64,000 nt of DNA from an uncultured Gemmatimonadales bacterium (GTDB lineage Bacteria; Gemmatimonadota; Gemmatimonadetes; Gemmatimonadales; Gemmatimonadaceae): assembly GCA_963793305.1 (NCBI GenBank), contig CAWBZV010000003.1:832001-896000 (forward strand), written 5' to 3'. The notes beneath the pieces are model-generated. The model was not told where the DNA came from. It made no database searches and worked only from the letters and a program-made list of their open reading frames with translations. The position numbers and the translations under genes were made by a program. Numbering within the stretch: the stretch's first letter is position 1; the number at the start of each line of letters is the position of its first letter. Of the stretch, positions 4,213 through 29,422 are shown piece after piece.

Positions 4213-4494
4213 ATGATCGACCGCTATTTCACCCACGAAGGTGAGCAATGGCGATGCTCCGTCGCCGTCACGCCGGCCGCCCCCGCCGGCCGTCCGCGCA
4301 GCGCCGTGTCGGTCGAAGAGGGCCGCACGCGGCTCTACTTCTGGTCGGCGTCCGGTGAGATGCGGTCGATCCTCTACCCGACCCCCCGGCGCCTCACGGA
4401 AGAGGAGATCCAGGCCGTCCCCGACGACCAGCTCCGCGAGCTGCTCGATGCGCCCGACGTGAAAACCATGGGGCGCCTTCCCATCGCCGGCTAG
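4213..4494 (+). CDS. Hypothetical protein (93 aa)
   Basis: ATG preceded by a TAAGTT -10-like hexamer; GC3-rich codon usage. Confidence 0.7.
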   Translation: MIDRYFTHEGEQWRCSVAVTPAAPAGRPRSAVSVEEGRTRLYFWSASGEMRSILYPTPRRLTEEEIQAVPDDQLRELLDAPDVKTMGRLPIAG

Positions 4495-4577
4495 CTCGGC
4501 GCAGCCGAGCGTTTCCAACCGATCAGCTTCGGGGCGACCGCTCCAGCGTTGCCGCGAAGCGTCGCCGGCCCGGCGCA
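4493..4577 (+). repeat. Dispersed three-hairpin element, copy A
   Basis: GCTCGGC-GCA-GCCGAGC, CAACCGATCA linker, GCTTCG..CGAAGC, CGCCG-GCC-CGGCG. Similar to copies at 17153, 28606 and 29339. Confidence 0.8.
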
Positions 4578-4628
4578 AGAGTTCGCCGGATGCTCGACAA
4601 CTCGGGGGCCGGCGCTTACACGTTTGAT

Positions 4629-5336
4629 GTGGCAGATGAGACCGTGCTCGTCATCGATGACGAGCCGCAGATCCGCCGCGTCGTACGAAACGCCCTCAAG
4701 GACGAAGGCGAAGTCGCGCGGACCATAGAGGCGTCAACCGGGGCCGAGGGGATCGACCGGGCGGCGGCGGAGCGGCCGTCGTTGATCGTTCTCGATCTCG
4801 GACTTCCCGACATGAGTGGCGAGGCGGTCTGTCGCGAGATCCGCGGCTGGTCGACCGCGCCCATCATCGTCCTCTCGGCCCGCCACTCCGAGCGCGAGAA
4901 AGTCGCCCTCCTCGACGCCGGCGCCGACGACTACGTGACCAAGCCGTTCTCGACCGTCGAATTTCAGGCCCGGGTCCGCGCGCAACTCCGTCGGTCACGG
5001 CTAGCCGGCGCCGGAGAGACCGGCGAGCCGCTGGTCTTGGATGGCGGGGCCATCACGATCGATCTCACGAAGCCCCAGCTCATGAAGCAAGGCGCGCCAG
5101 TACACCTCACGCGCACCGAGTGGGAGCTCTTGCGCGTGCTCGTCTCCCACGCCGGGAAGACCCTGACGCACCGCGAGTTATTTACCGCCGTCTGGGGCAA
5201 CTCGTTCGGCGACGCGCAGCAGTACCTTCGCGTCCACATTCGGAGCCTGCGCCGAAAGATCGAGCCCGATCCCGTGCGGCCGCGCTACATCATTACGGAA
5301 CCAGGCGTCGGATACCGCCTCGAGCCGACCGCGTGA
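4629..5336 (+). CDS. kdpE: KdpE response regulator (OmpR family)
   Basis: Receiver motifs VIDDE, LDLGLPD, GADDYVTKPF; winged-helix C-terminus YLRVHIRSLRRKIE..PRYIITEPGVGYR; lies upstream of kdpFABC. Start could be 4590. Confidence 0.92.
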   Translation: MADETVLVIDDEPQIRRVVRNALKDEGEVARTIEASTGAEGIDRAAAERPSLIVLDLGLPDMSGEAVCREIRGWSTAPIIVLSARHSEREKVALLDAGADDYVTKPFSTVEFQARVRAQLRRSRLAGAGETGEPLVLDGGAITIDLTKPQLMKQGAPVHLTRTEWELLRVLVSHAGKTLTHRELFTAVWGNSFGDAQQYLRVHIRSLRRKIEPDPVRPRYIITEPGVGYRLEPTA

Positions 5337-6859
5337 CGCGTGTGACCCGCCGGCAATTCGGCGAATATGCACTCTGGGTTGCCGCGCTCTTCCTCGTGTG
5401 GGCCGCCATGTTGTCCGTGCGGCCGCGCCTCAACGAAGCCCACGTCGCCCTCACGTTCCTCCTCGTCGTCCTCGGCGCTTCGGCGCGCGGGGGCCGCACG
5501 TTCGGGTTGGCCATAGCGGGTGCGGCGTTCTTGCTCTTCGACTGGTTTTTCTTGCCGCCGTATGGCGCACTGTTGGTGAGCAACCCGCTCGATTACGTGG
5601 TGCTGCTCGCGTTCCTGGCCACGAGCTTCGTGGCGGCCCAGCTACTCTATCGAGCCCAGGCGGAAGCGACGCTGGCCCAGCGACGGGCGGCCGAAATCGA
5701 CCGATTGGCCGCGCTGGGCTCCGAGTCGCTGAACGCCGGCCAGCCGCAAGACGCGCTCTTTGCGGTGGCCGAGGTGATCCGGACGACGCTCAAGCTCGAT
5801 CAGTGCGTGATCTTCCCGCGCGAGACGCCGCCCGCCGTCACGCAGTCTCCGCCCGACGTGCGGGCCGATCGCACGATCGCGCCTGGCCTCGTCGCCTGGG
5901 TCCTGCAGCACGGGACCGAGGCCGTGCTCTCCGCCGACGGCACGACGCGCCTGGCGTGGGACGGTCCCGCGCGGCTGGAGGCCGTGCCACAAGCGCGGGC
6001 GCTGTTGATGCCGCTGCGCGTGCGCGAGCGTAACGTCGGCGTGCTCGCTATCGTGCGCGACCACGGGCTTGCCCTCGATGCCGAAGCCCGGCGCGTGCTC
6101 GATGCGCTCTCGTACTACGCCGCGCTCGGCGTCGAGCGGGCGCGGCTCGTGGCCGATGCGCAGCACGCCGAGGCGCTGCGGCAGGCGGACAAGCTCAAAG
6201 ACGCGCTCGTGGCATCGGTCTCGCACGATCTCCGGACGCCGCTCACCACAATCAAAGCGCTGGCCCACGACATCTCGAATGGCGGCGACGAGCGTGCGAC
6301 GATCATCGAGCAGGAAGCTGATCGGCTGAACGAGTTCGTCGCCAACCTGCTCGACCTGTCGCGGATCCAGGCGGGTTCATGGCAGCCGTGTCCCGAGGCG
6401 AACGAGGCCGAGGATCTGGTCGGCGCGGCGTTGCAGCGAGTGGCGGGTCCGCGTGGCAGCCGCGATATCACCGTCTCGCTCGACGATGAGCATGCCATCC
6501 TGATCGGGCGGTTCGATTTTACGGCGACGCTTCGCGCGCTGGTCAACCTGCTCGACAACGCGATCAAATATGCGCCGGCGACGGCGCCCATCGAGCTGTC
6601 CGTCCGGCGGGATGGCGACATGATTGCGTTCGCCGTGAGCGATCCCGGGCCGGGTATCCCGGCGTCCGAAGCCGAACGCGTGTTCGAGCCGTTCTACCGG
6701 CCACCCGGCACGCCGCCCGACATCGGTGGCGCCGGCCTGGGTCTCTCGATTGCCCGCGGCCTCGTCGAAATGCAGGGCGGGTCGCTGCGCTACTCGCCCC
6801 GGCCGGGTGGCGGCAGCGTGTTCACGCTCCGCGTACCTCTTCACGAAAAATTTATGTGA
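5333..6859 (+). CDS. kdpD: KdpD-like sensor kinase (4-TM DUF4118-like, GAF, HisKA, HATPase) lacking the N-terminal KdpD and Usp domains
   Basis: GTGA overlap with the kdpE stop; FDWFFLPPY membrane motif; SVSHDLRTPL, NLLDNAIKY, DPGPGI, GAGLGL. Confidence 0.85.
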   Translation: MTRVTRRQFGEYALWVAALFLVWAAMLSVRPRLNEAHVALTFLLVVLGASARGGRTFGLAIAGAAFLLFDWFFLPPYGALLVSNPLDYVVLLAFLATSFVAAQLLYRAQAEATLAQRRAAEIDRLAALGSESLNAGQPQDALFAVAEVIRTTLKLDQCVIFPRETPPAVTQSPPDVRADRTIAPGLVAWVLQHGTEAVLSADGTTRLAWDGPARLEAVPQARALLMPLRVRERNVGVLAIVRDHGLALDAEARRVLDALSYYAALGVERARLVADAQHAEALRQADKLKDALVASVSHDLRTPLTTIKALAHDISNGGDERATIIEQEADRLNEFVANLLDLSRIQAGSWQPCPEANEAEDLVGAALQRVAGPRGSRDITVSLDDEHAILIGRFDFTATLRALVNLLDNAIKYAPATAPIELSVRRDGDMIAFAVSDPGPGIPASEAERVFEPFYRPPGTPPDIGGAGLGLSIARGLVEMQGGSLRYSPRPGGGSVFTLRVPLHEKFM

Positions 6860-6904
6860 AGTGGCGGCTTGCATACGCGGCCTTAACGCCCACGCCGGTA
6901 GCAT
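6840..6904 (+). promoter_or_regulatory. Putative KdpE box(es) and -10 element of the kdp promoter
   Basis: TTCACG-AAAAA-TTTATG (6840-6856) resembles the 11-bp-spaced E. coli KdpE site TTTATA-N5-TTTACA. A second pair CATACG-N5-TTAACG lies at 6872-6888, and TAGCAT at 6899-6904. Confidence 0.55.
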
Positions 6905-6913
6905 CCATCCGCT

Positions 6914-7009
6914 ATGCTCGATCTTCTCTATGTCGCGATCACGGTCGTCTTCTTCGGCCTGATGCTCGCGTTCGTTCGCGGTCTCCAGATCTTAGGCCGC
7001 GACAAATGA
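6914..7009 (+). CDS. Small single-TM peptide upstream of kdpF (31 aa, MLDLLYVAITVVFFGLMLAFVRGLQILGRDK)
   Basis: Translated by hand because it is below the ORF-track cutoff. Hydrophobic helix; its stop overlaps the kdpF ATG (ATGA). Confidence 0.8.
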   Translation: MLDLLYVAITVVFFGLMLAFVRGLQILGRDK

Positions 7010-7095
7010 GCCTCGACGCGATGATCGGCGGTCTCGTGTCCGCCGTTCTTCTGGTCTATCTGGTCTACACGCTGCTCCGTCCCGAGAAGTTCTGA
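7006..7095 (+). CDS. kdpF: K+-transporting ATPase subunit F (29 aa)
   Basis: MSLDAMIGGLVSAVLLVYLVYTLLRPEKF carries the hallmark YLxYxLLRPEKF end; 2 nt before kdpA. Confidence 0.95.
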   Translation: MSLDAMIGGLVSAVLLVYLVYTLLRPEKF

Positions 7096-7097
7096 TC

Positions 7098-8795
7098 ATG
7101 ACGGTGAACGGCTGGGCCCAGATTGGGTTCTATTGCCTCGTGCTGCTCGCGGTGACGAAACCCGTGGGCCTGTACCTGGTCCGCGTCTACGACGGCACCT
7201 ATCGATGGCTCGCGCCAGTGGAGCGCGTCATCTACCGCGTGTGTGGCGTCGACCCCGACGACGACCACCACTGGACGCACTATGCCGCGTCGCTCTTGAT
7301 CTTCAGCGCCGCGACGATGCTCGTGACGTATCTCGCGCTCCGGTTGCAGCATCTCTTGCCGCTCAATCCGGAGCATCTCGCGGCCGTCACCGACCGGCAA
7401 GCATTCGAGACGGCGGCGTCATTCACGACGAATACGAACTGGCAGTCGTACGCGGGCGAGACGACGATGTCGTACTTCTCGCAGATGACGCAGCTCGCGT
7501 TTCACAACTTCGCGTCTGCCGCGGTCGGCATGGCGGCGGCGGTCGCCTTGGTGCGTGGCATCGCGCGGCAATCGGCCGGCCGGCTCGGCAACTTCTGGGT
7601 CGATGTCGTGCGTGGGACGTTGTACGTCCTCATTCCCGCCTCGATCGTGTTGGCCCTGTTATTCGTCCAGCAAGGCGTCATTCAGAATTTCAAGCCGTAC
7701 GTGCACGCGACGACACTGGAGGGCGGCGCGCAGACGCTGCCGATGGGGCCCGTCGCGAGCCAGGAAGCGATCAAGCAGCTCGGGACGAACGGTGGCGGGT
7801 TCTTCAACGTCAACGCCGCGCATCCGTTCGAGAATCCCACGCCGTGGAGCAACTTCCTGCAGATGCTGGCGATTTTTATTATCCCCGCCGGCCTCGTGTA
7901 CATGTTCGGCCACACCGTGAAAAGTCCCAAGCATGGCTGGGCGGTCTGGTCGGCCATGTTCATTCTGTTCTTCGCGGGCACGACGACCGCCTACTGGGCC
8001 GAGGCGCGCGGCAATCCGATCCACCAGGCGCGAGGGATCGCGGTCGCTGACGGCAATATGGAGGGCAAAGAGGTTCGCTTCGGGATAGTGAACTCGGCCC
8101 TTTACGCAACGATCACGACCGACGCCTCGTGCGGCGCGGTGAACGCCATGCACGACTCGTTCACGCCGATCGGCGGCATGATACCGCTCGTGAATATCCA
8201 GCTGGGAGAGCTCGTCTACGGCGGCGTCGGCGCCGGCCTCTACGCGATGATCATTGAGATCGTGCTCGCGGTGTTCATCGCCGGGCTCATGGTCGGACGG
8301 ACGCCGGAGTATCTCGGCAAGAAGATCGAGAGCCGGGAGATCCGCATGGTCATGGTGTACGTGCTCGTGTACGCCTTTGTCGTGCTCTCGTTCACCGCCG
8401 TCTCGGTCGTCACGAAGGCCGGGCTTGCGGGCCTCAACAATGCCGGGCCACACGGGTTCTCGGAGATCCTGTACGCGTTCAGCTCCACCGTCGCCAACAA
8501 CGGCAGTGCGTTCGCCGGGCTGACGGGGACGACGTACTACTACAACACGATGTTCGGGCTCGCGACAATGTTCGGGCGGTTCGCGATGATGGTGCCGGCG
8601 CTGGCGCTGGCCGGGTTCTTGGCCGAGCGGCGCGTGGCGCCGGAGACGGCCGGGACATTCCCCGTGACGACGCCGCTGTTCGTGGTGCTGCTCCTCGGCG
8701 TCATCGTCATCGTCACCGCGCTGACGTTCTTCCCGGCGCTCTCGCTCGGCCCGATCGTCGAGCACTTCCTGATGCAACATGGCATACTCTTCTAG
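7098..8795 (+). CDS. kdpA: K+-transporting ATPase subunit A
   Basis: [52 protein letters not shown]. Confidence 0.98.
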
Positions 8796-10940
8796 ACCGC
8801 TCTTCGATCCTCCGATCGTCAAGCGGGCGATCCGGGACTCGTTCGTCAAGCTCAATCCGGCGCATCTCGTCCGGAACCCCGTCATGTTCGTCGTCATGAT
8901 CGGGAGCGTGCTCACGACGCTCGTCGTCGTCCGTGACGCGGTCACCGGTCATGGTGAGCTCGGCTTCTCGATTCAGCTCACGCTGTGGCTGTGGTTCACG
9001 GTGTTGTTCGCCAATTTCGCCGAGGCGATGGCCGAGGGTCGGGGCAAAGCCCAGGCCGACACGCTGAGAAAATCGCGGACGCAAACCGTCGCCAAGCGGC
9101 TTCTCTCGCGTGATGACCGCGGGCACTTCGAAACTGTGCCCTCCTCCTCGCTCACCAAAGGTGACTACGTCGTCGCGCTTCCGGGCGACGTGATCCCCGG
9201 CGACGGCGACGTCGTCGAAGGCGTCGCATCGGTCGACGAGTCCGCGATCACGGGCGAATCAGCGCCTGTCATCCGGGAGTCTGGCGGCGATCGCTCGGCC
9301 GTCACCGGTGGCACGCGCGTCCTCTCTGACTATCTGGTCATTCGCATCACCGCGAATGCCGGCGAGACGTTCTTGGATCGCATGATCGCATTGGTCGAGG
9401 GTGCCACGCGCCAAAAGACGCCCAATGAGATCGCGCTGACCATTCTCTTGTCCGGCCTGACGATCGTGTTCTTACTGGCTGTTGTAACACTGCAGCCATT
9501 TGCGATCTACAGCGGGACGGCAATCAGTATCCCGGTCTTGGTGGCGCTTCTCGTCTGTCTCATTCCGACAACGATCGGTGGGCTTCTCTCGGCCATCGGT
9601 ATCGCCGGCATGGACCGCGTCATCCAGCAGAATGTTATTGCGATGAGTGGGCGGAGCGTCGAGGCTGCCGGCGACGTGAACACGCTGCTGCTCGACAAGA
9701 CGGGAACGATCACCCTCGGCAACCGCCAAGCCGTCGAGTTCGTCCCGATGCCTGGCGTGACCCCCGAGCAACTCGCCGACCGCGCCCAACTCGCGTCATT
9801 GGCCGACGAGACGCCCGAGGGTCGCAGCATTGTCGTGCTGGCGAAGGAAAAGTTCGGCCTCCGGGGCCGCCAGTTGAGCGACGCCGAGAACGTCCTGCCG
9901 CCGGCCCAGTTGGCCGCGGTCGGGGCCGAGGTAGGCACAGTCAGGATCGCGTCGCAGGAGAGCACGAGCATCGCGCAGCCAAAAGAATGTCGAGTTCGTG
10001 CCGTTCAGCGCGTCCACGCGCATGAGCGGCGTCAACCTGCGCGGCGGCGGCGCGCTGCGCAAAGGCGCCGGCGACTCGATCAGTCGCTGGGTGCAGGAGA
10101 ACAATGGCGCGATCCCCCCGGAGCTCGACGCCGCGGTCGCGCGGATCGCGCGCGAGGGTGGGACGCCGCTCGTGGTCGCCGAGAAGACCAATGGAGCCGC
10201 GCGGGTGCTCGGCATCATCTACCTCAAGGACATCGTGAAGGGCGGCATGCGCGAGCGGTTCGATCGCTTGCGGGCCATGGGCATTCGCACGGTGATGATC
10301 ACGGGCGATAACCCGCTGACCGCCGCGGCGATTGCTCAGGAAGCTGGGGTCGACGATTTCCTGGCCGAGGCGAAGCCGGAAGACAAGAATGGCGCTGATC
10401 AAGCGCGAGCAGGCCGGCGGGCGGCTCGTCGCGATGACGGGCGACGGCACGAACGACGCGCCGGCGCTGGCGCAGGCGGACGTTGGCGTCGCCATGAATA
10501 CCGGAACGCAGGCGGCGAAAGAAGCCGGGAACATGATCGATCTCGACTCGAATCCGACGAAGCTGATCGAGATCGTCGAGATCGGGAAGCAACTGCTCAT
10601 GACGCGCGGGTCGCTCACGACGTTCTCGATCGCGAACGACGTGGCGAAGTATTTCGCGATCATTCCCGCGATGTTCACGGTCACATTTCCCGTACTGCAG
10701 TCGCTCAACATCATGCGGTTGCACAGTGCGAACTCGGCGATTCTGGCGAGCGTCATCTTCAACGCCCTGATCATCGTCGCGTTGATTCCGCTGGCGCTCC
10801 GTGGCGTGCGATATCGGCCGATGGGTGCCGCGTCGATTCTTCGGCGCAATCTCTTCATCTACGGCGTCGGGGGCATCATCGTGCCGTTCGTATTTATCAA
10901 ACTCATCGACATGATCCTGGTCGCCACTCATGCTGCGTAA
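8779..10940 (+). CDS. kdpB: K+-transporting ATPase subunit B; +1 frameshifts near 9982 and 10388
   Basis: [38 protein letters not shown] and DLDSNPTK spread over three frames; each junction is repaired by removing one A. Confidence 0.96.
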
Positions 10941-11508
10941 TCAATTACGCCCGGCGATCGCGCTCACGTTCATCCTGATCGTGATCACCGGGTTGATCTA
11001 TCCTGGTATTGTCACCGGCCTCGCGCAGGCGCTCTTCCCGCACCAGGCCAATGGCTCGCTGATCGAATCGAATGGTCGCGTGGTTGGCAGTGGGCTCATC
11101 GGGCAATCATTCGCGTCGGCCAAATATTTTCATCCTCGGCCATCGGCCGCCGGGTCCGGATATATCGGTGATTCGTCGTCGGGGACCAACAAGGGTCCAA
11201 CAGACCGCAAATTGGCCGACACGCTGATCGCGCAAGCCGTTGACAGTGCCGTCAAGAACGACGGTGCAGTAAAGGGGCATATCCCGGCCGACATGGTGAC
11301 ATCGTCGGGCTCGGGCCTCGATCCTCATATCTCGCCGGCAACGGCGGAGATACAAATTGCCCGCGTCGCCAGAGCGCGGGGCGTTTCAGCCGATCGCATC
11401 CGCGCGATCGTCGCCGCACACACCGAAGCCCGCCAGCTCGGATTCTTCGGCGAGCCACGCGTGAACGTGCTGCTGCTCAACCTGGCGTTGGACTCACTCA
11501 ACCACTAA
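10930..11508 (+). CDS. kdpC: K+-transporting ATPase subunit C
   Basis: [51 protein letters not shown]. Confidence 0.97.
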
Positions 11509-11520
11509 GCCCCCAGCCAT

Positions 11521-12891: not shown

Positions 12892-12935
12892 AAAGGGGGT
12901 AGCCCAATGTCGCCCAGTGGACCACGTTATGGCGC

Positions 12936-17132: not shown

Positions 17133-17152
17133 GGGCCATGTATTCACGGTTC

Positions 17153-17245
17153 TGCGCCGCGCTTCGCGGCGGCTCGAACGCTTCGAGGCAGTGCTTCGCC
17201 CTGCTCGAAGCTGGTCGGTTGGACAGCGCTCGACTGCGTCGAGCT
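17153..17245 (-). repeat. Dispersed three-hairpin element, copy B
   Basis: Minus strand: GCTCGAC-GCA-GTCGAGC, CAACCGACCA, GCTTCG..CGAAGC, CGCCG..CGGCG. Confidence 0.8.
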
Positions 17246-18193
17246 TTGGCTCTGGCGGCCGCCGCCGCGACCGCGGTCATTGTCGGCGCGACTTCGGGCT
17301 GTCTCGGCAACACCACCGTTGCCGCTCCGCCGCCGGCGGACACCGTCTGCGCCCGCGGCGCGCTCAAGGTCGGCGATAGCATCGTCAACATATTCGACGC
17401 CGCCAACGGCTGTCGCACGGTCGATCTCTACTCGGCCGAGACCACGTTCGCCAACGCGTATACGGTGGCGCTCACGTCGGGGTCGGGCTATCTCATCACG
17501 ATGGGCACGACGGACTCGAACCCGTACCTGCGTTCGTCGCTCGAGCTCGTGAACACGAAGAAGCGGTTGATCGCCTACGACACGTACTATTTCCCACAGG
17601 AAGCGGCGCTGACGTTCGTGGCGGACAGCACGATCAACTGGACGGTGAGGGCCGCGACCCTGGACACGCTCGCCGGCGATCTCGGGCAGTATTTCATCAA
17701 GATGCAGTCGTGCAAGGTGCCCGTTGCGTTGCTGGTCAACTCGACGGACTCGGCGACGCACTCGGACAGCCTCACGAAATCAGACTGCAAAATGCCGATG
17801 GGCGACTTCAATCCCGTCGACAGCTCGCGCGTGCATCTCTACTCGATGCATCTGGACGCGGGCCAGTCGCGCACGCTGACCTACAGCTCCACGGTGCCGA
17901 TGGTGATTCTGATCGGCCCAACGTACGACACGTTCGCGTCGCTCCTGGGATCGCGCGGCGCCGATAGCCTCGACTCCCAGAGCGGCTCGCTGGAGTTCTT
18001 CCCGGACTCGACCGCCGACTATACGGTCGTCGTCGGCACCTTTGCTTATTCTACGACGAGCGTGCCGTACACGCTGACCATCGGCGCGGAGCACGCGCCA
18101 TCGGTGCAACGAGTGCTCCCCCGGCATCGTATTACCGAGCATGAGACCCATTTGTCTGTCGGCACTCGCCCTCGCTGCTGCAGCGTGCGGTAG
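17219..18193 (+). CDS. Lipoprotein of unknown function (paralog 1)
   Basis: Lipobox-like TSGC after a hydrophobic stretch; Ser/Thr-rich beta sequence; aligns along its length with the next gene. Start uncertain (TTG 17219 or ATG 17138). Confidence 0.75.
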   Translation: MDSARLRRALALAAAAATAVIVGATSGCLGNTTVAAPPPADTVCARGALKVGDSIVNIFDAANGCRTVDLYSAETTFANAYTVALTSGSGYLITMGTTDSNPYLRSSLELVNTKKRLIAYDTYYFPQEAALTFVADSTINWTVRAATLDTLAGDLGQYFIKMQSCKVPVALLVNSTDSATHSDSLTKSDCKMPMGDFNPVDSSRVHLYSMHLDAGQSRTLTYSSTVPMVILIGPTYDTFASLLGSRGADSLDSQSGSLEFFPDSTADYTVVVGTFAYSTTSVPYTLTIGAEHAPSVQRVLPRHRITEHETHLSVGTRPRCCSVR

Positions 18194-22073: not shown

Positions 22074-22239
22074 GAGGAGTTTCGCCCCGGAAAAAGTCGC
22101 TACTGACTACCACCGTGTCAGGCCGAGCGCAACTGTTTTGGGATGAGTGCCCGATCGCCCACGCCGCCCGATCGTCCACGCGCCCGAATTATCAACTAGT
22201 CGACTAGTAGCGTCGGCGACGAGCGCGAAGCGCGAGGAG

Positions 22240-23004
22240 TTAGTACCCGGGCCGCACGAGGATCGAATCGCCGACGCGGATCCGGTTGGACGCCAGGTGA
22301 TTCCACCGCTTCAACGAGTCGACGGGAACGTGATACTCCGTCGCAAGCGTGGCGAGCGCGTCGCCGCGCTTGACGCGATGGTACTGCGGCGCCCGCGCCA
22401 GCTGCGCCGCCTCCTCCTGCTGCTCGATGACCTTCGCGGCAGCAGCCCGCGCTGCGCTCTGCCACCGTGCCACCCCAGTCATGAGCAGCTCCGCCGCCTC
22501 CCGATCGCGCGGCAAGATGGCAAACCGCTCCCGCGTCCCCGGCGCCCGCAGCGCGATGCTGTGTATCCCGCTCACGGGCGACCGACTATCCCTCAACACG
22601 ATGGAGTCGAGCCAAAACCCGTACAGCTCGGTCGCCGGCGTCTCCCCGTCCGCCGCCGGCGGCGGTAGCAACGATGGCACGAGCCCGACGAAGATGAGCC
22701 GTCGATCGGTGACGGCGAGCATGCCCGGTGTAGCCTTCGGCGACCACCAGACGTGCCGAGACACCGGCACGGTGTACAGCGCCCTTTCCCCAGAGCGCCG
22801 TAGCTCGTCTCTCAAATGCTGGGCGACCGCGGGTGGGGGCGCATCGGGCGGCCGCTCGAGCACATAGAGCGCGTACCCAATCACTTCTCTCGCCCCGACA
22901 ATGGCGAGAATGACGAACGCCACCTTCGCCAACCGGCGCGCCGTCAGTCGCTGAATAATGTGCCCGGATTCAACCAGGGCATGACGAACACTGAGTTGCA
23001 CCAT
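22240..23004 (-). CDS. Membrane-anchored LysM-domain protein
   Basis: C-terminal YHRVKRGDALATLATEYHVPVDSLKRWNHLASNRIRVGDSILV; one N-terminal TM; start uncertain. Confidence 0.85.
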   Translation of the reverse strand: MVQLSVRHALVESGHIIQRLTARRLAKVAFVILAIVGAREVIGYALYVLERPPDAPPPAVAQHLRDELRRSGERALYTVPVSRHVWWSPKATPGMLAVTDRRLIFVGLVPSLLPPPAADGETPATELYGFWLDSIVLRDSRSPVSGIHSIALRAPGTRERFAILPRDREAAELLMTGVARWQSAARAAAAKVIEQQEEAAQLARAPQYHRVKRGDALATLATEYHVPVDSLKRWNHLASNRIRVGDSILVRPGY

Positions 23005-23017
23005 GAAATTTACCCCA

Positions 23018-24542
23018 ATGACCGCGGAACGCGCCGCCATGCGCGTGGTGCAGGCCGGCGCGATCGCCGTCGTCCTCGCCGCGCTGCCGTACAAGACATT
23101 TGACCTCGATCGCTACTTCGTGCCGAAGGAGCTCGTCCTCGGCCTGACCGCGACCGCCGCCGCGCTTCTCTTGCTCGCGCACCGGGACGCGCACAAACCG
23201 GCAGTCAGTCGCGTCGATGTCCTGCTGTTCGTCTTCCTAGGTCTAAGCGCCGTATCGTCTTGGTTCGCGCAGAACGGCTGGCTCGCCTGGCGCGCCCTGG
23301 CCTTAAGCCTGGCCGGAATCCTGATTTTCTGGACCACCCGCGGCCTCTCCCGCGCTGGCCTGGGCCACCAGGTCCTCGGCGCAATAGCCCTCGCCGTCGT
23401 GGTCGCCGCCGGCACGTCCCTGTTTCAGGCCTATGGCGGCCACGGCGACCTCCTGAGCTTGAACCGCGCTCCCGGCGGCACGCTCGGCAACCGGAACTTC
23501 GTAGCCCACCTGGCCGCGATCGGCCTCCCGGTGCTCGTGCTGATCATCCTCGACACCCGCCGGTTCGTCGCATTTCTCGCCGGCACCGTCGGCTTAGGTC
23601 TAGTCGTCTGGGCCCTGATCCTCTCGCGCTCCCGAGCGGCCTGGCTCGCCGCCGGCCTGTGTGCGCTTCTGGCGCTGATCGCGGCCTGGCGTTCCGGCTA
23701 CCGTCCACCGATCGGCCGAGCGGTGATCCTCGTCGGCGCCGCCGCAGCCGGCATACTCGCGGCGTTAGTGCTGCCGAACACGCTCCACTGGAAGAGCCGC
23801 AACCCGTACCTGGAATCGGCCGTCGGCGTCGCCGACTACCGCGACGGCAGCGGCCATGGTCGCATCGTGCAGTACTCGACGACCACCAAGATCGCCCTCG
23901 CCCACCCGATCCTGGGCGTCGGCCCGGGCAACTGGCCCGTCGTCTACCCAAAGTACGCCGCGCCAAACGATCCATCGCTCGACAGCGACGACGGCATGAC
24001 CGCGAACCCGTGGCCCTCCAGCGACTGGGCCGCGTACTTGTCCGAGCGCGGGTTAGTGGCCACGCTCTTCCTGGCCTTAGGGCTCATCACGCTCGCCGCC
24101 ACCGGCGCGCCGTTGACACTCATCGCGACGGTCCTCGCGGTGTTCACCGTCGGCGCCTTCGACGCGGTATTGTTGTTACCCGCGCCCACTCTGTTGGTCT
24201 GGGCCACCCTCGGCGCCCTCACGCCTCAAGCCAAGCCCAGGCCTCCGCATTCCAATCCCCCGAATCCTGGCCGCCGTCGTGATCTTCGTCCTCGGTGCCG
24301 CCTCAATCCTGCGCAGCACCCAGGAGGCCGTCGCCATGGCGATCGCCAACGACGAGACCTCGGCCGGCCCCCTCGAAATCGCCGCCCGCGTCGACCCAGG
24401 CTCCTATCGCATCCAAGTCCGCGTCGCCGAGGCCGAGGAGCGCCGCGGCCACTGCGGCGCGGTGATCACGCACGCCACCGCGGCGCGGAAGCTCTTCCCC
24501 TCGGCTCCAGCGCCCCGGCACTTACTCTCGCGTTGTCGCTGA
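23018..24542 (+). CDS. O-antigen ligase (Wzy_C)-like membrane protein; +1 frameshift near 24242
   Basis: Multi-TM; GTLGNRN, LSRSRAAWLA, HPILGVGPGNW; C-terminal TPR-like segment in the adjacent frame. Confidence 0.8.
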
Positions 24543-24548
24543 TCGGCA

Positions 24549-24631
24549 ATTTACAAGAGCACCGTTAGTTTTACGTCATGTAAAACTTTAGATATTTTGC
24601 AGATCGTTAAAACAACGATTACTTTGTAAAT
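24549..24631 (+). promoter_or_regulatory. AT-rich promoter with inverted-repeat operators upstream of the AbiEi-like gene
   Basis: AGTTTTAC-N5-GTAAAACT (24567-24587), ATCGTT-N5-AACGAT (24603-24619), and outer ATTTACAA..TTGTAAAT. Confidence 0.7.
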
Positions 24632-25693
24632 ATGCCCGACACCCGGTCGTCTCAGCTGGAGCGGCGTGCGCTCGCGCTCGTGCGCGACGCCGTGCCCACA
24701 TCCGTCGAGGTGATCGGCACTCCGACCGAGACCGACACCGGTGCCGATGCCCGCGTGACGCTACCAGATGGCGGGACCGCATTGTTGGAGTTCAAGCGAT
24801 GGCCTGGTCCGGACGCGCACAAGCGGCGATCCCGCGAAGACGAGCGCTCGCCTACACTCGTATGGGTCACGCCGCGAGCGTCCGCCGACCAACGGCGGCA
24901 ATGGCGCGATCGCGACGAGAGCTTCGTGGATCTGAGCGGCGCGGTCCGCCTCGCGCTCCCCGGTCTGATCATCGACCGGACAGATCTCACGGGCAAGCAG
25001 TCCGCGTCGGATCGCATCACGTTCAGCCGAAACCCGTTCTCGGACCGCGCCTCACTGGTCGTCCGCGCGATGCTCGAAGCACCGCGTAAGCCTTGGAGTA
25101 CGACCGCGCTCGCCACAGCAGCCGGTGTGTCTGTCCCTACCGTTTCACTCGTGACGGAAGGGCTGCGGCGATTAGAGCTCCTGTCATCGCCGCCCGGGCA
25201 ACGCGGCGCGATGACGCTCGACGACCCGGCGGCCGTCATCGCGCAGTGGTCTCGGCGCTATGACTGGCGACGGAATGCAAGCGTTGCGCTCGCTGCACCC
25301 ATCGGGAGTGCGGAGGGTTTCTTTGGACAACTTGCGACGACGTTGGGGCCAGCGAAGCGTAGGCGGTGGGCTCTGACGCTTCAGGCGGGAGCATCGTTCG
25401 TCGCTCGGCACGCGGATTGGGACATCATTCACGCGTACGTGGATGTGGAGTCGGTCGACCAGCTGATCGAAATCGGGTTGAAGGCGGGATGGCCGCCCTC
25501 GCCGACCGGCAGACTCGTGCTGATGCAGCCGTGGTATCACGCGTCTGTCTGGTATCATGCCCAAGCGTACATCAAAGCGCTACGCGAATTTCCCGTAGTG
25601 AGTCCCGCGCAGCTCGTGCTCGATCTGTGGCATTATCCCGTACGTGGCTTGGAGCAAGCGGAACTCATCATGAAGCGCGCAGGATGGATATGA
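24632..25693 (+). CDS. AbiEi-like antitoxin / transcription regulator (type IV TA)
   Basis: N-terminal restriction-endonuclease-like D..EFK, SFVDLSG motif, central HTH (LATAAGVSVPTVS), C-terminal VSPAQLVLDLWHYPVRGLEQAE typical of AbiEi_2-like proteins. Confidence 0.75.
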   Translation: MPDTRSSQLERRALALVRDAVPTSVEVIGTPTETDTGADARVTLPDGGTALLEFKRWPGPDAHKRRSREDERSPTLVWVTPRASADQRRQWRDRDESFVDLSGAVRLALPGLIIDRTDLTGKQSASDRITFSRNPFSDRASLVVRAMLEAPRKPWSTTALATAAGVSVPTVSLVTEGLRRLELLSSPPGQRGAMTLDDPAAVIAQWSRRYDWRRNASVALAAPIGSAEGFFGQLATTLGPAKRRRWALTLQAGASFVARHADWDIIHAYVDVESVDQLIEIGLKAGWPPSPTGRLVLMQPWYHASVWYHAQAYIKALREFPVVSPAQLVLDLWHYPVRGLEQAELIMKRAGWI

Positions 25694-26574
25694 CTCCGCG
25701 CAACGAGACGGATCAGGAGCGGGCTTTCACTCGTGTCCTGTGGTTCCTCCGCGAGTACTTGCCGGACCTCGTGATCATCGGCGGATGGGTGCCCTATATC
25801 TACAAGAATTACAGTGGAGATCCTTGGATTGGGCGTCAGTCGCGCACGAACGAAGTCGACGTCCTAGCGATGCCCCCGCTTCCAGTGCGACAGGGTGTAC
25901 CACTCGATGAGATCCTACGCGAAGCGGGGCTCGCCCCGCAACGAGACACAGGACCTTCCGCCGTCTGGTCAGCGATCGGCGACACTGGCGAGGAAATCGA
26001 GTTTCTGACGCCACTTGCCGGCACGGCCACCGAGTTCGGTTCCACCGTGAGCTTGCTTGGACATGGCCGAATCGGGGCGATCCGATTGACAGGTCTCGAG
26101 CTCCTCGGTCGCCACACGAACACGATGCGCGTGCCGCTCGGAGACATCGGCGGGCGAATGCAAGAGGTCACCGTACGGGTGCCTCTCCTGGGCGCTTATC
26201 TGGTGAACAAGGGCGCGACGTTCCTTGCCCGGCGGCCGCACTCCAGTGGACCCAATCCGAAGCAGGCGAAAGATCTCGTCTACGTGCACAACGTCATGGC
26301 CGCGAGCGACGTCGTCAGAAAGCGCGTCGAGACTGATATCCAGCGCTTGTGGCAGCAGAGCAAGAAGGCGAGCATCGAGCGCCAGGCGATTCGCACGGCG
26401 AGCAACAACCTGTCATTGGCACTCGGCGGAACCCTGGGGGTCGTCACCTCGGCGGCCGAGGAGCTCGGAACGCGCGACGGCTTGACGCGGGTTGACGCAT
26501 CGGCGCGCATTCGCGGACAACTGGGCGACTTCATGGCCCTGCTAAAACAGACCCAGACCAGCACTCCACGTTAG
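25690..26574 (+). CDS. Nucleotidyltransferase-fold protein (AbiEii/GSU2403-like putative toxin)
   Basis: ATGA overlap with the upstream gene; VIIGGW, RTNEVDV, IEFLTP, YLVNKG, KQAKDLVY. Confidence 0.75.
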   Translation: MTPRNETDQERAFTRVLWFLREYLPDLVIIGGWVPYIYKNYSGDPWIGRQSRTNEVDVLAMPPLPVRQGVPLDEILREAGLAPQRDTGPSAVWSAIGDTGEEIEFLTPLAGTATEFGSTVSLLGHGRIGAIRLTGLELLGRHTNTMRVPLGDIGGRMQEVTVRVPLLGAYLVNKGATFLARRPHSSGPNPKQAKDLVYVHNVMAASDVVRKRVETDIQRLWQQSKKASIERQAIRTASNNLSLALGGTLGVVTSAAEELGTRDGLTRVDASARIRGQLGDFMALLKQTQTSTPR

Positions 26575-26587
26575 AGCGGCGGGTTCC

Positions 26588-26637
26588 ACCGCGACGCCAC
26601 TGTTCCACTTGGATGGAACAGTAGGCGTGGCTGCGGT
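26588..26637. terminator. Long imperfect hairpin between convergent genes
   Basis: ACCGC.ACGCC-ACTGTTCCA-CTTGGA-TGGAACAGT-A-GGCGT..GCGGT. Confidence 0.5.
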
Positions 26638-26649
26638 TTGTCCAAGCTG

Positions 26650-28572
26650 CTATTGCACCGTCCCAAGTAGATACTGCTGTACGAACGCCACCATCGCGTA
26701 CTGCTGGTAATCCTGGTTCTTCTTCTTCGCGAACCCGTGCCCTTCGTCGAGGCCGACGAGATACCAGACCGGCGTGCCGTGCTGGCGAACCGCGCTGACG
26801 ATCTGGTCGGCCTCGGACTTGGGCACGCGCGGGTCGTTGGCGCCGGAGACGACGAAGAGGGGCTTCGTGATCTTGTCGGCGTGGTTGAGTGGCGCCATCG
26901 ACTCCATGAAGGCGCGGACCGTCGAGTCGCGCTCGTCGCCGTACTCGACGCGGCGCAGATCGCGACGGTAGCTCTCGGTGTGCTCGAGGAACGTCGCGAG
27001 GTTGGACATGCCGACAACGTCGAGGGCGCAGGTGATCTTGTCGGCGTACAATGTCGCCGTCACGAGGGTCATGTGCCCGCCGTAGCTGCCGCCGGTGACC
27101 ATGACGCGATTCGCGTCGAGATCGGGCTGCGTGGCGATCCAGTCGAAGAGCGTGCCGATGTCGTGGTAGGCGTCGACGCGTTTGACGCCGTTGTCGGCCG
27201 CGACGAAGGTCTTGCCGTACCCGGTCGAGCCCCGGACGTTCGGGAAGATGATCGCCACGCCCTGCTGGTCAATGAAATAATTCAACCGGCCCAGGAATCC
27301 TGGCCGTGACTGTCCCTCGGGGCCGCCGTGGATGTCGATGATGACCGGACGCTTGCCCGTGAACTTGGCGGCGGGTTGATATAAGAATCCGGAGAGCGTG
27401 AGTCCGTCCGTGCCTTTCCAGTGGACCAGCTTCGGCTCGACGAACGTCTTGGGATCGATCCCGCCGGTCTCGCTCTCGGTCCAGCGGTCGACGTTCCCGG
27501 TCTCGACGTTGAGCGAGTAGACGTCCTGCGGCGATCGCGCCGAGCTGACCACGAAGCCCAGGTCGCGGTTGTTGCGGTGCCAACGCAGTCCGCCGATGAC
27601 GCCGACGGGCAAGTTGGCCGAGTGGCGGATGGCGCCGGTTTTCGGATCCATCAAGTGCACGACGCTGATGCCATCCTCGTTCGTCACGTAGGCCAGCGTC
27701 TTCCCATCCCAGGAGAGCGCGAAATCCTCGACATCCCACTTGGGCTCACGGCTCACGACGTGCGCGACCCCGGTCGCGACGTCGATCGCGATCAGGCGGG
27801 CGAACTCGGCGCCCTCGTCGCTCGTCGCGTAGACGAGCTTCCCGTCCGGGCTGAACTGCCCGCCGCCGTAGGCGACCACGCCCGGCGGCGTTAGCCGGCG
27901 CTTCGAGCCCGTGGCAACGTCGACGAGCCAGAGTGCGCTCTCGTTCACCGAGTGGTAGTCGGAGACGAGGAGCGATTTGTTGTCGGGCGACCAGTCGAGC
28001 GGCGCCCATCCGCCGCCCTGCACCTCGAGCACCTTGCGATCACTCGACGGGTTGGCCGGATCCATGGTGTAGATGTCGGTGTCGGTCCCGTTGCGCCGTG
28101 TCGAGCGGTAGGCGATGCGCGTGCCGTCGGTCGACCACGGCCCGACGTCGTTCTTGCTCTTGCCATCGGTGAGCAACGTCGCTTCGCCCGTCACCGGGTC
28201 GAACCGGTACAGCTGATTGAACTCGCTGCCGCCGACGTCGCGCTCGAGGACGAGATACGCGCCGGTGGCCGGCTGATAGCTCGCGGCCAGCACGCGATCG
28301 GGGAAGAACGTGAGCTGCCGGCGATCGCCGCCGGGGAACCGCACCACGTGCATCTGCACGACGTCGGCGAAGCGCGTGCCGATCAGGATCTCGCGGCGCG
28401 TCGGGTGCCAATCCTGGAGCGCCGCGCTCCGGAACTCCGTGTAGCGTCCGACCGTCTCGGCCACGCGCGCCGAGATCGGGGGGATGCCGTCGACGACGAG
28501 GTGCTCGTTCGGCACGACATTCTGTGCGCCGAGGGCCACGGGGAGAGCCAGTACGCACCAGCGAGCAAACAC
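26650..28572 (-). CDS. S9 family serine peptidase (prolyl oligopeptidase / acylaminoacyl peptidase-like), secreted
   Basis: TolB-like propeller repeats; IHGGPE, NVRGSTGYG, GGSYGG, GANDPRVP, EGHGF. Confidence 0.93.
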   Translation of the reverse strand: MFARWCVLALPVALGAQNVVPNEHLVVDGIPPISARVAETVGRYTEFRSAALQDWHPTRREILIGTRFADVVQMHVVRFPGGDRRQLTFFPDRVLAASYQPATGAYLVLERDVGGSEFNQLYRFDPVTGEATLLTDGKSKNDVGPWSTDGTRIAYRSTRRNGTDTDIYTMDPANPSSDRKVLEVQGGGWAPLDWSPDNKSLLVSDYHSVNESALWLVDVATGSKRRLTPPGVVAYGGGQFSPDGKLVYATSDEGAEFARLIAIDVATGVAHVVSREPKWDVEDFALSWDGKTLAYVTNEDGISVVHLMDPKTGAIRHSANLPVGVIGGLRWHRNNRDLGFVVSSARSPQDVYSLNVETGNVDRWTESETGGIDPKTFVEPKLVHWKGTDGLTLSGFLYQPAAKFTGKRPVIIDIHGGPEGQSRPGFLGRLNYFIDQQGVAIIFPNVRGSTGYGKTFVAADNGVKRVDAYHDIGTLFDWIATQPDLDANRVMVTGGSYGGHMTLVTATLYADKITCALDVVGMSNLATFLEHTESYRRDLRRVEYGDERDSTVRAFMESMAPLNHADKITKPLFVVSGANDPRVPKSEADQIVSAVRQHGTPVWYLVGLDEGHGFAKKKNQDYQQYAMVAFVQQYLLGTVQ

Positions 28573-28605
28573 GGGAGAAGCCTCTCGAGGGGAGGCCCGT
28601 AATCT

Positions 28606-28662
28606 AGCAAGACGCTACGCGCTTGCCCGAATACGGAGTCGGTTGGATACGCTCCGCTCCGC
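28606..28662 (-). repeat. Dispersed three-hairpin element, degenerate copy D
   Basis: Minus strand GAGCGTATCCAACCGA matches copy A GAGCGTTTCCAACCGA at 15/16 positions, followed by a GCAAG-CGC-GTA-GCG-TCTTGC hairpin. Confidence 0.55.
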
Positions 28663-28678
28663 TATGCTGGCGAAATTC

Positions 28679-29281
28679 TCAGGTACCCGTGAGGTGAATG
28701 GCGATCTCGCCGACGTACGGCCGGAGCTCACGGGCGAGACGGTTCGACGAGGAGACTTTCTTGTCGCCCATGACCGACCGGTACGGCTTGTTGTCGAACA
28801 GGTGGAGCGCGTCGAGCCGGATCGCGATCGTGCTATCGCGCGCCAAGACGCCACCGTGCCAGTTGATGACCTGCCCGCCGTAGTCTAAGCCGAAGCCATT
28901 GAACTCGAAGGGCTTGGTGTTGAGCCGCTGCAGATCTTCGACCGTGGTGCCGAGCGTCACGCCCGACATGGTGTGCCACACGGACTGCGATCCGCGGAGC
29001 GTGACGCTCTTCGGATAGCGCAGGTTGACGGTGTCGCCAAAGGCGATCTCGATGCGACGCAGGGAGTCATCGGGGAAGATCACGGCCTCGACCACCCCGG
29101 CGTCCCGTTTGAGGCGCACGTTGGTTTCGCCATAGGAGCGGGCGATATCGGCCAATGTGCACTTGGACGTGATCGCACCGACTCGTGAGCCGGGGATGAT
29201 CACCCAATCGGAGTTGTCGGGTGTCGCTGACGCGAGAGCGGCCAGAACAAGGGCCGCGATGTGCGTGTATGCGGCGCTCAT
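28679..29281 (-). CDS. Secreted hypothetical protein
   Basis: Signal peptide; IIPGSRVGAIT, GVTLGTTVEDLQRLNTKPFEFNGFGLDYGG. Confidence 0.75.
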   Translation of the reverse strand: MSAAYTHIAALVLAALASATPDNSDWVIIPGSRVGAITSKCTLADIARSYGETNVRLKRDAGVVEAVIFPDDSLRRIEIAFGDTVNLRYPKSVTLRGSQSVWHTMSGVTLGTTVEDLQRLNTKPFEFNGFGLDYGGQVINWHGGVLARDSTIAIRLDALHLFDNKPYRSVMGDKKVSSSNRLARELRPYVGEIAIHLTGT

Positions 29282-29338
29282 GCTACAGAGACGATCGACT
29301 CGCAAAAGAGTCGCGCGGACTTTCTGTCATCCGCGCGA

Positions 29339-29422
29339 CGCCGCTCCGCGGCGCGTCGATGCAGCGCTTCGCGCTTGCTCGACTGGTCGGTTAGAAGGAG
29401 CTCAGGCTTGCGCCTGAACTCC
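29339..29422 (-). repeat. Dispersed three-hairpin element, copy C (first hairpin may act as a terminator)
   Basis: Minus strand GGAGTTCAGGC-GCAA-GCCTGAGCTCC, TAACCGACCA, GTCGA..GCGC-GAA-GCGC..TCGAC, CGCCGC-GGA-GCGGCG. Confidence 0.75.

Follow-up and report, generated by a model that had tools for sequence, protein, structure and literature searches.

A gene-less hairpin element of about 80 bases occurs in about 115 copies (115 anchored on its linker) in the source genome, G000. The first-pass annotation of the window, the whole 64,000-nucleotide stretch analysed here, had suggested looking for empty orthologous sites; each of the four sites in the window has an empty counterpart in one relative or more, and the element is therefore mobile. 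With moderate confidence we read it as a mobile element without genes whose imprecise insertions, at many unrelated sites, likely involve a single folded DNA strand. Empty sites, restriction to a single genus and GNA loops on one strand favor the annotation's proposal of a non-autonomous ssDNA mobile element, with a single-stranded form likely. The window copies and their features are:

4493 to 4577, + strand: copy A, with left hairpin, linker, GCTTCG-type hairpin 2 and a non-standard last hairpin
4494 to 4510, + strand: hairpin 1 of copy A, a 7-bp stem with a c-GCA-g loop, from sequence and fold
4517 to 4523, + strand: linker core of copy A, AACCGAT, a putative recognition or nick region
17153 to 17245, − strand: copy B, linker core at 17214–17220
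17138 to 18193, + strand: ORF hosting copy B, with no Pfam match for 17246–18193
28607 to 28670, − strand: copy D, of the two-hairpin subfamily, linker core at 28638–28644
29339 to 29422, − strand: copy C, the standard three-hairpin form, linker core at 29386–29392

For copies A, B and C, the annotated coordinates, stems and linkers were all confirmed. Their ssDNA folds comprise three hairpins (z = −3.4, −3.8 and −5.2), and a covariance model built from 46 copies, these three among them, scores them at 41–78 bits and everything else in the window at 17 bits or less. The left end of copy A overlaps the TAG stop of the ORF at 4213–4494, and its third hairpin can alternatively form a longer fold closed by flanking DNA. 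This site is empty in G005 (net +78 bp), holds a different 1.06-kb insert in G001, and carries an inverted left-half copy in the same gap in G003. Copy B had been described as inverted; the orientation stands, but the copy is more than inverted, being a 93-bp in-frame antisense insert that adds 31 codons near the N-terminus of its host ORF, a terminus that, judged by eye, probably resembles a lipoprotein signal peptide. G001 has copy B as well, with one difference inside the element, and the G005 orthologue lacks it. Copy C lies 23 nt after the stop of the ORF at 29445–31034; the site is empty in G001 and G004, with a net gain of 85 bp and target bases replaced. Copy D, just past the stop of the ORF at 28679–29281 and ahead of a TAG, scores weakly on its own (E = 6 with nhmmer, E = 0.14 with the covariance model). 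It is nevertheless real, since it is a clean insertion absent from G004 (+64 bp) and G001 (+65 bp), and what had been read as a degenerate copy is rather a two-hairpin family member.

Across the genome, nhmmer returned 117 matches at E ≤ 0.1 against none in the reversed genome, placing the family far above chance and bearing out the expectation of further copies above background. As predicted for a lineage-specific repeat, it is confined to one genus of Gemmatimonadota-like bacteria, represented by six genomes (67–95% complete, one a single 5.1-Mb contig), and includes both genic and intergenic copies. G000, G001, G004 and G005 are rich in the element, and G002 has no exact match to the linker core. 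Five single weak model matches in other genera, with 30 candidates scored per genome, were unconvincing, four lying in coding DNA and one in a GNA-hairpin cluster with a different linker; six viral-contig matches were chance. We found no plasmid or phage match for the element. A loose pattern search did no better than its control, and a genome-wide scan for linker plus inverted repeat gave no extra copies above control heptamers. The suggested Rfam comparison gave no match at gathering score, with none in the window and one chance match (E = 0.31) in six loci. The literature in coverage, namely main texts outside subscription, held no account of this family or of palindromic repeats in Gemmatimonadota.

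The element is modular. One of two alternative left arms (main type in 88 of the 115 copies, a G-rich minority type in 27) is followed by a fixed unpaired linker and then by one or two right hairpins, for a length of 60–120 nt. A fixed third hairpin without a target-derived arm ends about three-quarters of the copies. The family as a whole is mostly solitary rather than in inverted doublets, with occasional tandem arrays. The unpaired stretch after hairpin 1 spans 10–12 nt. Within it, only the core of the YAACCGAYCA linker first proposed is invariant: AACCGAC is retained, each of its 7 positions in 103–115 of 115 copies (partly owing to how copies were found), and the CAG that follows varies. 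That this unpaired core is kept while the stems on either side change implies recognition. The c-GNA-g loops noticed at the outset recur through the family: over the 115 copies, 222 hairpins of c-GNA-g or c-GNNA-g type lie on one strand and 3 on the other. Among the 88 main-type copies there are no terminal inverted repeats (best end-to-end match, 2–7 nt), and only 2–5 per end have a terminal GTAG or CGTC tag; GTAG lies internally in 18 of the 27 minority-type copies, and in 17 of the 27 the left arm holds GTAG, two bases and then a G-rich stem.

Comparison of filled and empty alleles illustrates how imprecise the junctions are. Across 53 pairs, 27 lose 2–36 target bases, 18 duplicate 3–43 and 8 are flush, giving overlaps from −36 to +43 and no fixed target duplication. 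A general long target duplication was rejected: none of the 88 main-type copies shows one, and 4 of the 27 minority-type copies do. Mismatch is elevated within about 30 nt of both ends, partly as an alignment artefact. Some alleles that we call empty may be imprecise losses, and the empty allele at site C3:1530520 keeps a possible remnant. Turnover of sites is rapid. Of 53 testable sites, in a sample enriched for shared ones, 15 are also occupied in the ~93%-identical relative G001, and about 48 of 111 indels of 15–260 bp between the two genomes, in a targeted sample of G001 DNA, hold a linker-like motif. Shared copies diverge by 4.2%, against 7.1% for intergenic DNA (a difference due partly to ascertainment), which hints at some function once inserted.

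Predicted genes overlap 39 of the 115 copies, and 17 lie deep inside genes in either orientation. The net insert length is a multiple of three in 29 of 53 pairs (p = 0.001), and in-frame inserts absent from relatives occur in polA (+75 bp), smc (+63), transketolase (+69) and alcohol dehydrogenase (+72), all with open frames and intact Pfam domains. Judging from these sequences, DNA polymerase I and SMC apparently tolerate 21–25 extra residues at the insert positions. A predicted stop coincides with the left end in 27 of 115 copies, and the lagging and leading strands do not differ significantly in copy number (57:38, p = 0.06). We regard the element as probably selfish; its inserts persist where the reading frame is kept or at stop codons and gene junctions.

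Where the standard third hairpin is missing, the final stem is often formed between an internal arm that departs from the consensus and target DNA already present in the empty allele. In a discovery set of 27 copies, 46 bases pair in this way against 27.6 in flank-swapped controls (p < 0.001, post hoc), and a second set of 20, fetched afterwards, replicates the excess (43 against 24.2, p = 0.0005). All of this signal comes from copies in which the standard third hairpin is missing (48 paired bases against 12.2), a class defined by loss of the standard end, so that some selection on outcome is possible. In this class, 6 of 15 copies have a mirror stem of at least 5 bp against 0.06 expected; in the other nine it is shorter than 5 bp, and window copy D has none. 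Copies with the standard third hairpin show no excess (41 against 37.3, with 0 of 32 reaching 5 bp), nor do left ends (39 against 35.8). At site C5:1155572, a 15-bp mirror of a gene start begins 2 nt past the linker; in two-hairpin copies generally, the mirror stem starts 1–4 nt past it. A tandem array in G003 mirrors a gene end that is conserved in element-free alleles.

These mirror stems bear on the covariation that the annotation had described. The stems do covary: 14 of 26 pairs changed on both sides (72 cells), a level reached by 0 of 500 shuffles and compared with 10–18 cells in slid controls, in a set of hand-picked three-hairpin copies whose sequences are related and in which copy A aligns poorly. 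The covariation is real, but selection cannot be read cleanly from it, since some of the stems are mirror images of the target that are particular to their own site; part of it likely arose through fold-back DNA synthesis and not through selection. Motif hunters should thus take care, as significant covariation in a dispersed repeat can come from copying and not from selection on RNA structure.

How might such an element move? Its working form would be one folded DNA strand in which hairpin 1 and the linker act as a recognition module, with some enzyme nicking or priming near AACCGAC. A repair polymerase likely joins the element to the target and briefly copies the target backwards, presumably at insertion, and such copying would account for the mirror-image stems. 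For the joining step, host end-joining by Ku with a LigD polymerase is the leading candidate. Ku is present in all six genomes and G000 has four LigD polymerase domains. Against this candidate, both proteins are common in soil bacteria and also occur in G002, which has no exact match to the core. Bacterial NHEJ is described in PMC6379672 as capturing DNA at breaks with messy ends, and template switching in PMC8794818 as making perfect stems in one step. We offer only as a speculation, and an improbable one, that hairpin and AACCGAC together form a module that brings in a host polymerase, either a primase-polymerase or one of end-joining, uses the target for priming and at each landing site generates its own terminal stem from the local sequence, without any transposase. 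If this were true, a transposase-free family would manufacture its own covariation and adapt its ends to any site, and the long-unexplained RPE- and CGTC-type repeats without a known mover would gain a mechanism.

Searches of the genus genomes identified no mobilizing enzyme. The HUH partner envisaged by the annotation, a co-occurring RAYT-type nuclease, did not appear: Y1_Tnp (PF01797) is found in none of the six genomes at E ≤ 0.1, with controls detected, and the searches found no nuclease gene linked to the element. A scan of predicted genes for HUH motifs gave 37 matches and no candidate, a search of G000 for DUF559 no mobilizer, and TrwC relaxase is absent from the genus. The two relaxases of MOB-P type are encoded on islands that contain no elements; close to one of them is a TATCCTG motif, which we take to be the MOB-P nick consensus. 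Reverse transcriptase (PF00078) occurs only in G003 and is absent from the four element-rich genomes, and a SINE-like retro-element reading was rejected on this ground. A GIY-YIG gene beside one copy is UvrC-like and conserved, and its orthologues in G001, G004 and G005 have no element; IS110 is represented by one split gene with no copy nearby; and no copy lies within 1.5 kb of any of the seven tyrosine recombinase loci. Neither orphan halves nor close pairs yielded an autonomous version with a gene between the halves, and no gene is flanked by inverted copies; genes between close copies look like housekeeping genes (by eye, and some by Pfam).

The strongest competitor, although we consider it unlikely, is an ordinary REP/REPIN-type element whose RAYT-like HUH transposase is lost, unassembled or too divergent, with messy ends and mirror stems arising later through template-switch errors at hairpins in replication. 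One-strand GNA hairpins without a fixed duplication suit HUH substrates as presented in PMC2817692 and PMC6006769, and template switching is treated as a general mutational process in PMC8794818. The GTAG-REP-like motif in minority-type left arms points the same way, as does the 92% completeness of G000, but Y1_Tnp is missing even from the single-contig genome and main-type copies lack the terminal tags. Moreover, neither the left hairpin nor the standard terminal one of 7 bp, though equally exposed to later errors, shows a target-derived extension, and copies so recent that the ~93%-identical strain does not share them already have mirror arms. It is far less probable that the internal arm is a pre-existing guide that chooses its target by base pairing, making the element self-programming. 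The arms do pair with the target; by inspection, 7 of 13 such targets have TAG within a few bases of the junction, and CTAG occurs in many of the arms. IS608-type elements likewise select their target with a short guide. A carried guide should recur at several sites, however, whereas the arms, the 15-bp one included, are each found at a single site once the core common to them is set aside; the junctions are imprecise, and survival at stop codons can itself yield TAG enrichment.

A selected RNA motif for processing, stability or termination, bound by a host protein and spread for its regulatory benefit, has similarly little to recommend it. The GNA strand is usually mRNA-like, both between co-directional genes (37:14, p = 0.002) and inside genes (29:10, p = 0.003), and the many left ends at stops and the modest conservation of shared copies fit as well. 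Yet few sites are shared, coding sequence is entered in both orientations and Rfam gave no match, while c-GNA-g loops are known for exceptional stability as DNA rather than as RNA. The annotation's alternative of a protein-bound RNA motif is thus unsupported as a primary role, because of the few shared sites and the two orientations inside coding sequence. We give slighter credence still to a process without dedicated recognition, in which random breaks capture GNA hairpin fragments that resist exonucleases, whatever their sequence, this family being simply the most amplified. Linker-less GNA hairpin inserts are indeed polymorphic among the same strains, some mirroring the target, and one gene end has four different hairpin inserts in four strains; the linker kept amid changing stems argues otherwise.

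How palindromic repeats spread without a known transposase, and enter essential genes in frame, is an open question. This family supplies 53 filled/empty pairs and a testable signature, a target mirror just past a fixed linker, that points to a polymerase and end-joining step. Several known systems share features with it. Hairpin 1 with its unpaired linker has the layout of relaxase nic sites (oriT), in which a hairpin precedes a short single-stranded recognition stretch, but the relaxase genes of the genus lie apart from the element. Integron attC sites have paired RYYYAAC and GTTRRRY end boxes with crossover at AAC; an attC reading was rejected, as the element has a single AAC in mid-segment, both flanking hairpins are inserted together, and tyrosine recombinase loci have no copy close by. 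Bacterial MITEs (ERIC/RU, RUP, Correia; PMC2759123) are similarly small, non-coding and structured and form in-frame ORF fusions, but the element has no terminal inverted repeats (best end match at most 7 nt) and no TA or other fixed duplication. REP/REPIN/BIME elements with RAYT (TnpA-REP; PMC2817692, PMC6006769) share copy numbers above 100, compensatory changes in the hairpins, the lack of a fixed target duplication, occasional tandem arrays, a probable ssDNA form and the GTAG-REP-like motif of the minority left arm. Unlike them, the main type has no terminal tag, the genus has no RAYT gene and inverted copies flank no gene; the element is also mostly solitary rather than in inverted doublets, at 60–120 nt against 20–40 nt. 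Template-switch (quasi-palindrome) mutation (PMC8794818) likewise makes a reverse-complement copy of nearby sequence with perfect stems in one event, but here the mirror is tied to one end of a spreading element.

The closest likeness is to Rickettsia palindromic elements (RPEs) and intragenic REPs, which, in the available portions of PMC3733652, are short, palindromic, lineage-specific repeats lying in frame in working genes, including genes of DNA replication and repair; DNA polymerase I is among the tagged genes there, and CGTC repeats have no dedicated transposase. By description, the element differs from RPEs in being modular and untagged, and its empty alleles reveal imprecise junctions and terminal stems that mirror the target, a junction analysis we did not note in those portions. 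Taken together, this is an RPE/REP-like and probably selfish element with an informative junction signature.

The four stretches of the window that the first-pass annotation read as a structured repeat, copies A to D of a gene-less hairpin element of ~80 bases, were borne out as described. A whole-genome scan with the linker, the unpaired stretch after hairpin 1, found dozens of relatives in the genome holding the window (G000; 5.72 Mb, 26 contigs, 92% complete). Further copies lie well above background: a profile built from 47 linker-scan relatives gave 117 matches at E ≤ 0.1 in G000 versus 0 in the reversed genome. The 115 copies analyzed here are the E ≤ 0.3 matches that could be anchored on the linker; three could not. 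Judged by one neighboring protein, of KdpE type, whose nearest named relatives come from Longimicrobiaceae and Gemmatimonadaceae genomes, the host probably belongs to the Gemmatimonadota. Exact matches to the 14-base core number 60 in G000, 27, 9, 9, 1 and 0 in the five other genomes of the genus, and two, both by chance, in 55 further genomes. Among 146 genomes of the family, with 30 candidates scored per genome, strong covariance-model matches were confined to the genus, and a left-half pattern matched 62 times in G000 versus no more than 10 times per genome across 380 others of the order. Two unpublished genomes, G012 and G344, enter these tallies as counts alone. Among 80 metagenome loci listed as matching a 17-base core, 17 are true copies, all mapping to G000 at 81–99% identity. 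Rfam and the plasmid and phage collections searched with the element returned no match.

The unit is modular, comprising a left arm, the unpaired core AACCGAC, and one or two right hairpins. The main left arm (88 copies, A–D among them) is a 6–8-bp hairpin with a GNA-type loop; the alternative (27 copies) is a G-rich/C-rich hairpin, with an internal GTAG-REP-like motif in 17. Each core position is kept in 103–115 of the 115 copies, partly by construction. About three-quarters of copies continue after the linker with a second hairpin that is fixed and a third of 7 bp; in 84 of 94 strong copies the loop of this third hairpin is c-GGA-g. A non-standard end was assigned to 29 of 118 listed copies, a few of which are misclassified standard copies. 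Copies A and B belong to a GCTTCG subfamily, in which the last hairpin varies, and copy D to a two-hairpin subfamily that also forms a 66-base tandem array in G003. In 46 selected three-hairpin copies, the proposed covariation of the stems proved significant, at 14 of 26 pairs. In DNA, c-GNA-g loops have unusual stability. Within the element, loops of the GNA type lie on one strand (222 versus 3).

Related forms were also seen. Some G-rich left arms hold nested extra hairpins in the loop (G000 C14:29995 and C19:10149; locus L098), and this form is found in both G000 and G001, at sites that differ. At G000 C2:526556, a tRNA-like 3′ end is immediately followed by a G-rich left arm that lacks both the linker and the right half. 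A second small family (G000 C2:566654 and C2:710912) combines a GNA hairpin and an AACCGAY motif with a different conserved right part; G001 is empty at one of the two sites.

The element is almost certainly mobile. G001 and G004 share ~93% DNA identity with G000, which exposes empty alleles, and the anticipated empty orthologous sites were found for all window copies: G005 has empty sites for A and B, and both G001 and G004 have them for C and D. Fifteen of 53 G000 copies with covered flanks are common to G000 and G001, as counted over 0.77 Mb of G001 in a sample enriched for shared sites. From 61 candidate filled/empty pairs, we dropped eight: at three the site was not really empty, two were duplicates, two were misaligned and one belonged to another family. 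The 53 kept show target loss of 2–36 bases (27 pairs), target duplication of 3–43 bases (18) or flush junctions (8). Copies of the G-rich type sometimes lie next to ~20–110-base duplications of a gene end, and they occur in tandem arrays. Direction is established for some pairs, not all, and one or more of the empty alleles may reflect loss of the element.

Several sites carry other inserts. Exactly where G000 has copy A (window 4494–4590), G001 has a 363-aa gene (L121:9815-10906, contig C2), called AAA-ATPase-like on its Walker motifs, and the G003 gap holds an inverted left-half copy; because the three genomes carry different inserts there, this gap is a repeated insertion site. At a CTAG gene end downstream of a UvrC-like gene (loci L168, L169, L170, L175, L177), G000, G001, G003 and G005 each have a different short insert, in most cases a hairpin; G004 is empty there. 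In L168 (G000 C5:285280), a G-rich-type copy lies 3′ of a diverged duplicate of a gene's last codons, with the peptide nearly unchanged; the downstream copy of these codons matches the empty alleles. Linker-less GNA-loop hairpin inserts are polymorphic between strains at G000 C5:308343, C5:370352, C3:161601, C3:282706 and C19:26990, all five being present in G001, and at least two apparently contain a mirror (reverse complement) of the target.

By our own gene calls, 39 of the 115 copies overlap coding sequence, in both orientations: 17 are internal, 15 lie close to the C-terminal end and 7 close to the N-terminal end. Among the host proteins are MeaB, MazG, DNA polymerase I, SMC, transketolase, alcohol dehydrogenase, and arginase-family and PLD-family enzymes. 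The polA insert adds 75 bp relative to G001, G004 and G005 and 72 bp relative to G003, and the smc insert 63 bp relative to four genomes; at both of these sites G002 shows different length changes. Relative to G001, transketolase gains 69 bp and alcohol dehydrogenase 72 bp. Of the 53 pairs, 29 have a net insert length divisible by three (p = 0.001). These observations fit near-random targeting in which the ends vary and the events that survive are those that keep the frame or fall next to a stop. Elsewhere in the window, the gene in the kdpB position between kdpA and kdpC (8779–10940) is split into ORFs at 8779–10311 and ~10332–10940, which points to either a frameshift or a misassembly.

In several pairs, the last hairpin closes, via internal non-consensus bases, on DNA also present in the empty allele, forming a mirror stem. 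Counting from empty-allele flanks only, a first set of 27 pairs gave 46 paired bases versus 27.6 with swapped flanks, in a test designed after examples had been seen and leaving out six pairs with long duplications or mis-set junctions. A second set of 20 pairs, fetched afterwards, gave 43 versus 24.2 (p = 0.0005). When the 47 pairs are pooled, the excess comes entirely from the 15 copies without a standard end (48 versus 12.2), a class whose definition by that loss limits generality, and is absent from the 32 standard copies and all left ends. The mirror measures 5–7 bp in six of these 15 copies and less than 5 bp in nine, which counts against generality; copy D has no mirror stem. A position-free test on 13 non-standard-end copies yielded 78 versus a null mean of 59 and a maximum of 71 in 300 draws. 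The clearest mirror matches 15 bp of a gene start, beginning 2 nt after the linker; at this site G001 shares the gene start, lacks the element and differs in the DNA upstream. A site-specific mirror of 5–15 bases calls for templated synthesis; such an origin of the mirror arms is very probable.

We favor, short of proof, mirror synthesis coupled to insertion, because equally exposed standard and left hairpins have no mirror and mirrors occur in copies younger than the G000–G001 split. Insertion would be single-stranded, by nick-and-join with polymerase fold-back: the 3′ end would fold back or switch template, copy the target for a short stretch, and then be joined. We put this whole chain at about even odds; mobility and templated mirror arms are much firmer than enzymes or timing. 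Template switching makes perfect stems in one step, according to the available part of PMC8794818. By analogy, the mixture of deletions, duplications and fillers at junctions is reminiscent of end joining, a process by which bacteria can capture DNA at breaks (PMC6379672, available part). Ku is present in all six genus genomes and four LigD polymerase domains in G000; these genes do not track element copy number.

The conserved hairpin and unpaired linker look like a putative recognition and nick module, in the manner of relaxase sites. The co-occurring RAYT/IS200/IS91-type nuclease that had been envisaged did not emerge: the genus genomes searched contain no Y1 transposase or TrwC, and no nuclease gene is tied to the copies. 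The same holds for GIY-YIG, IS110, integrase and relaxase genes; G000 has no DUF559, and within the genus reverse transcriptase occurs only in element-poor G003. The one IS110-family transposase gene of G000 (C3:810332; L193:760-2027) is divided between two reading frames. A DnaA-like gene (named by eye) in two frames, divergent from the adjoining ku, lies at L479:2245-3443 (G000 C3), with an orphan third-hairpin-like motif between the two.

The GNA strand is mostly the mRNA-like strand (37:14 and 29:10), and copies shared by G000 and G001 diverge by 4.2% versus 7.1% in intergenic DNA; these sequence patterns make effects on RNA possible. Rapid turnover argues for a selfish element.

Tests of membership among RAYT-REPs, MITEs, attC sites and retro-elements failed for this element. 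We found no description of it in the literature outside supplements, which may list related repeats. Its interest is carried mainly by the junction evidence. As far as the available part of PMC3733652 describes them, RPEs and untagged or enzyme-less REPs are its likeness among known systems, and it works in a similar way.
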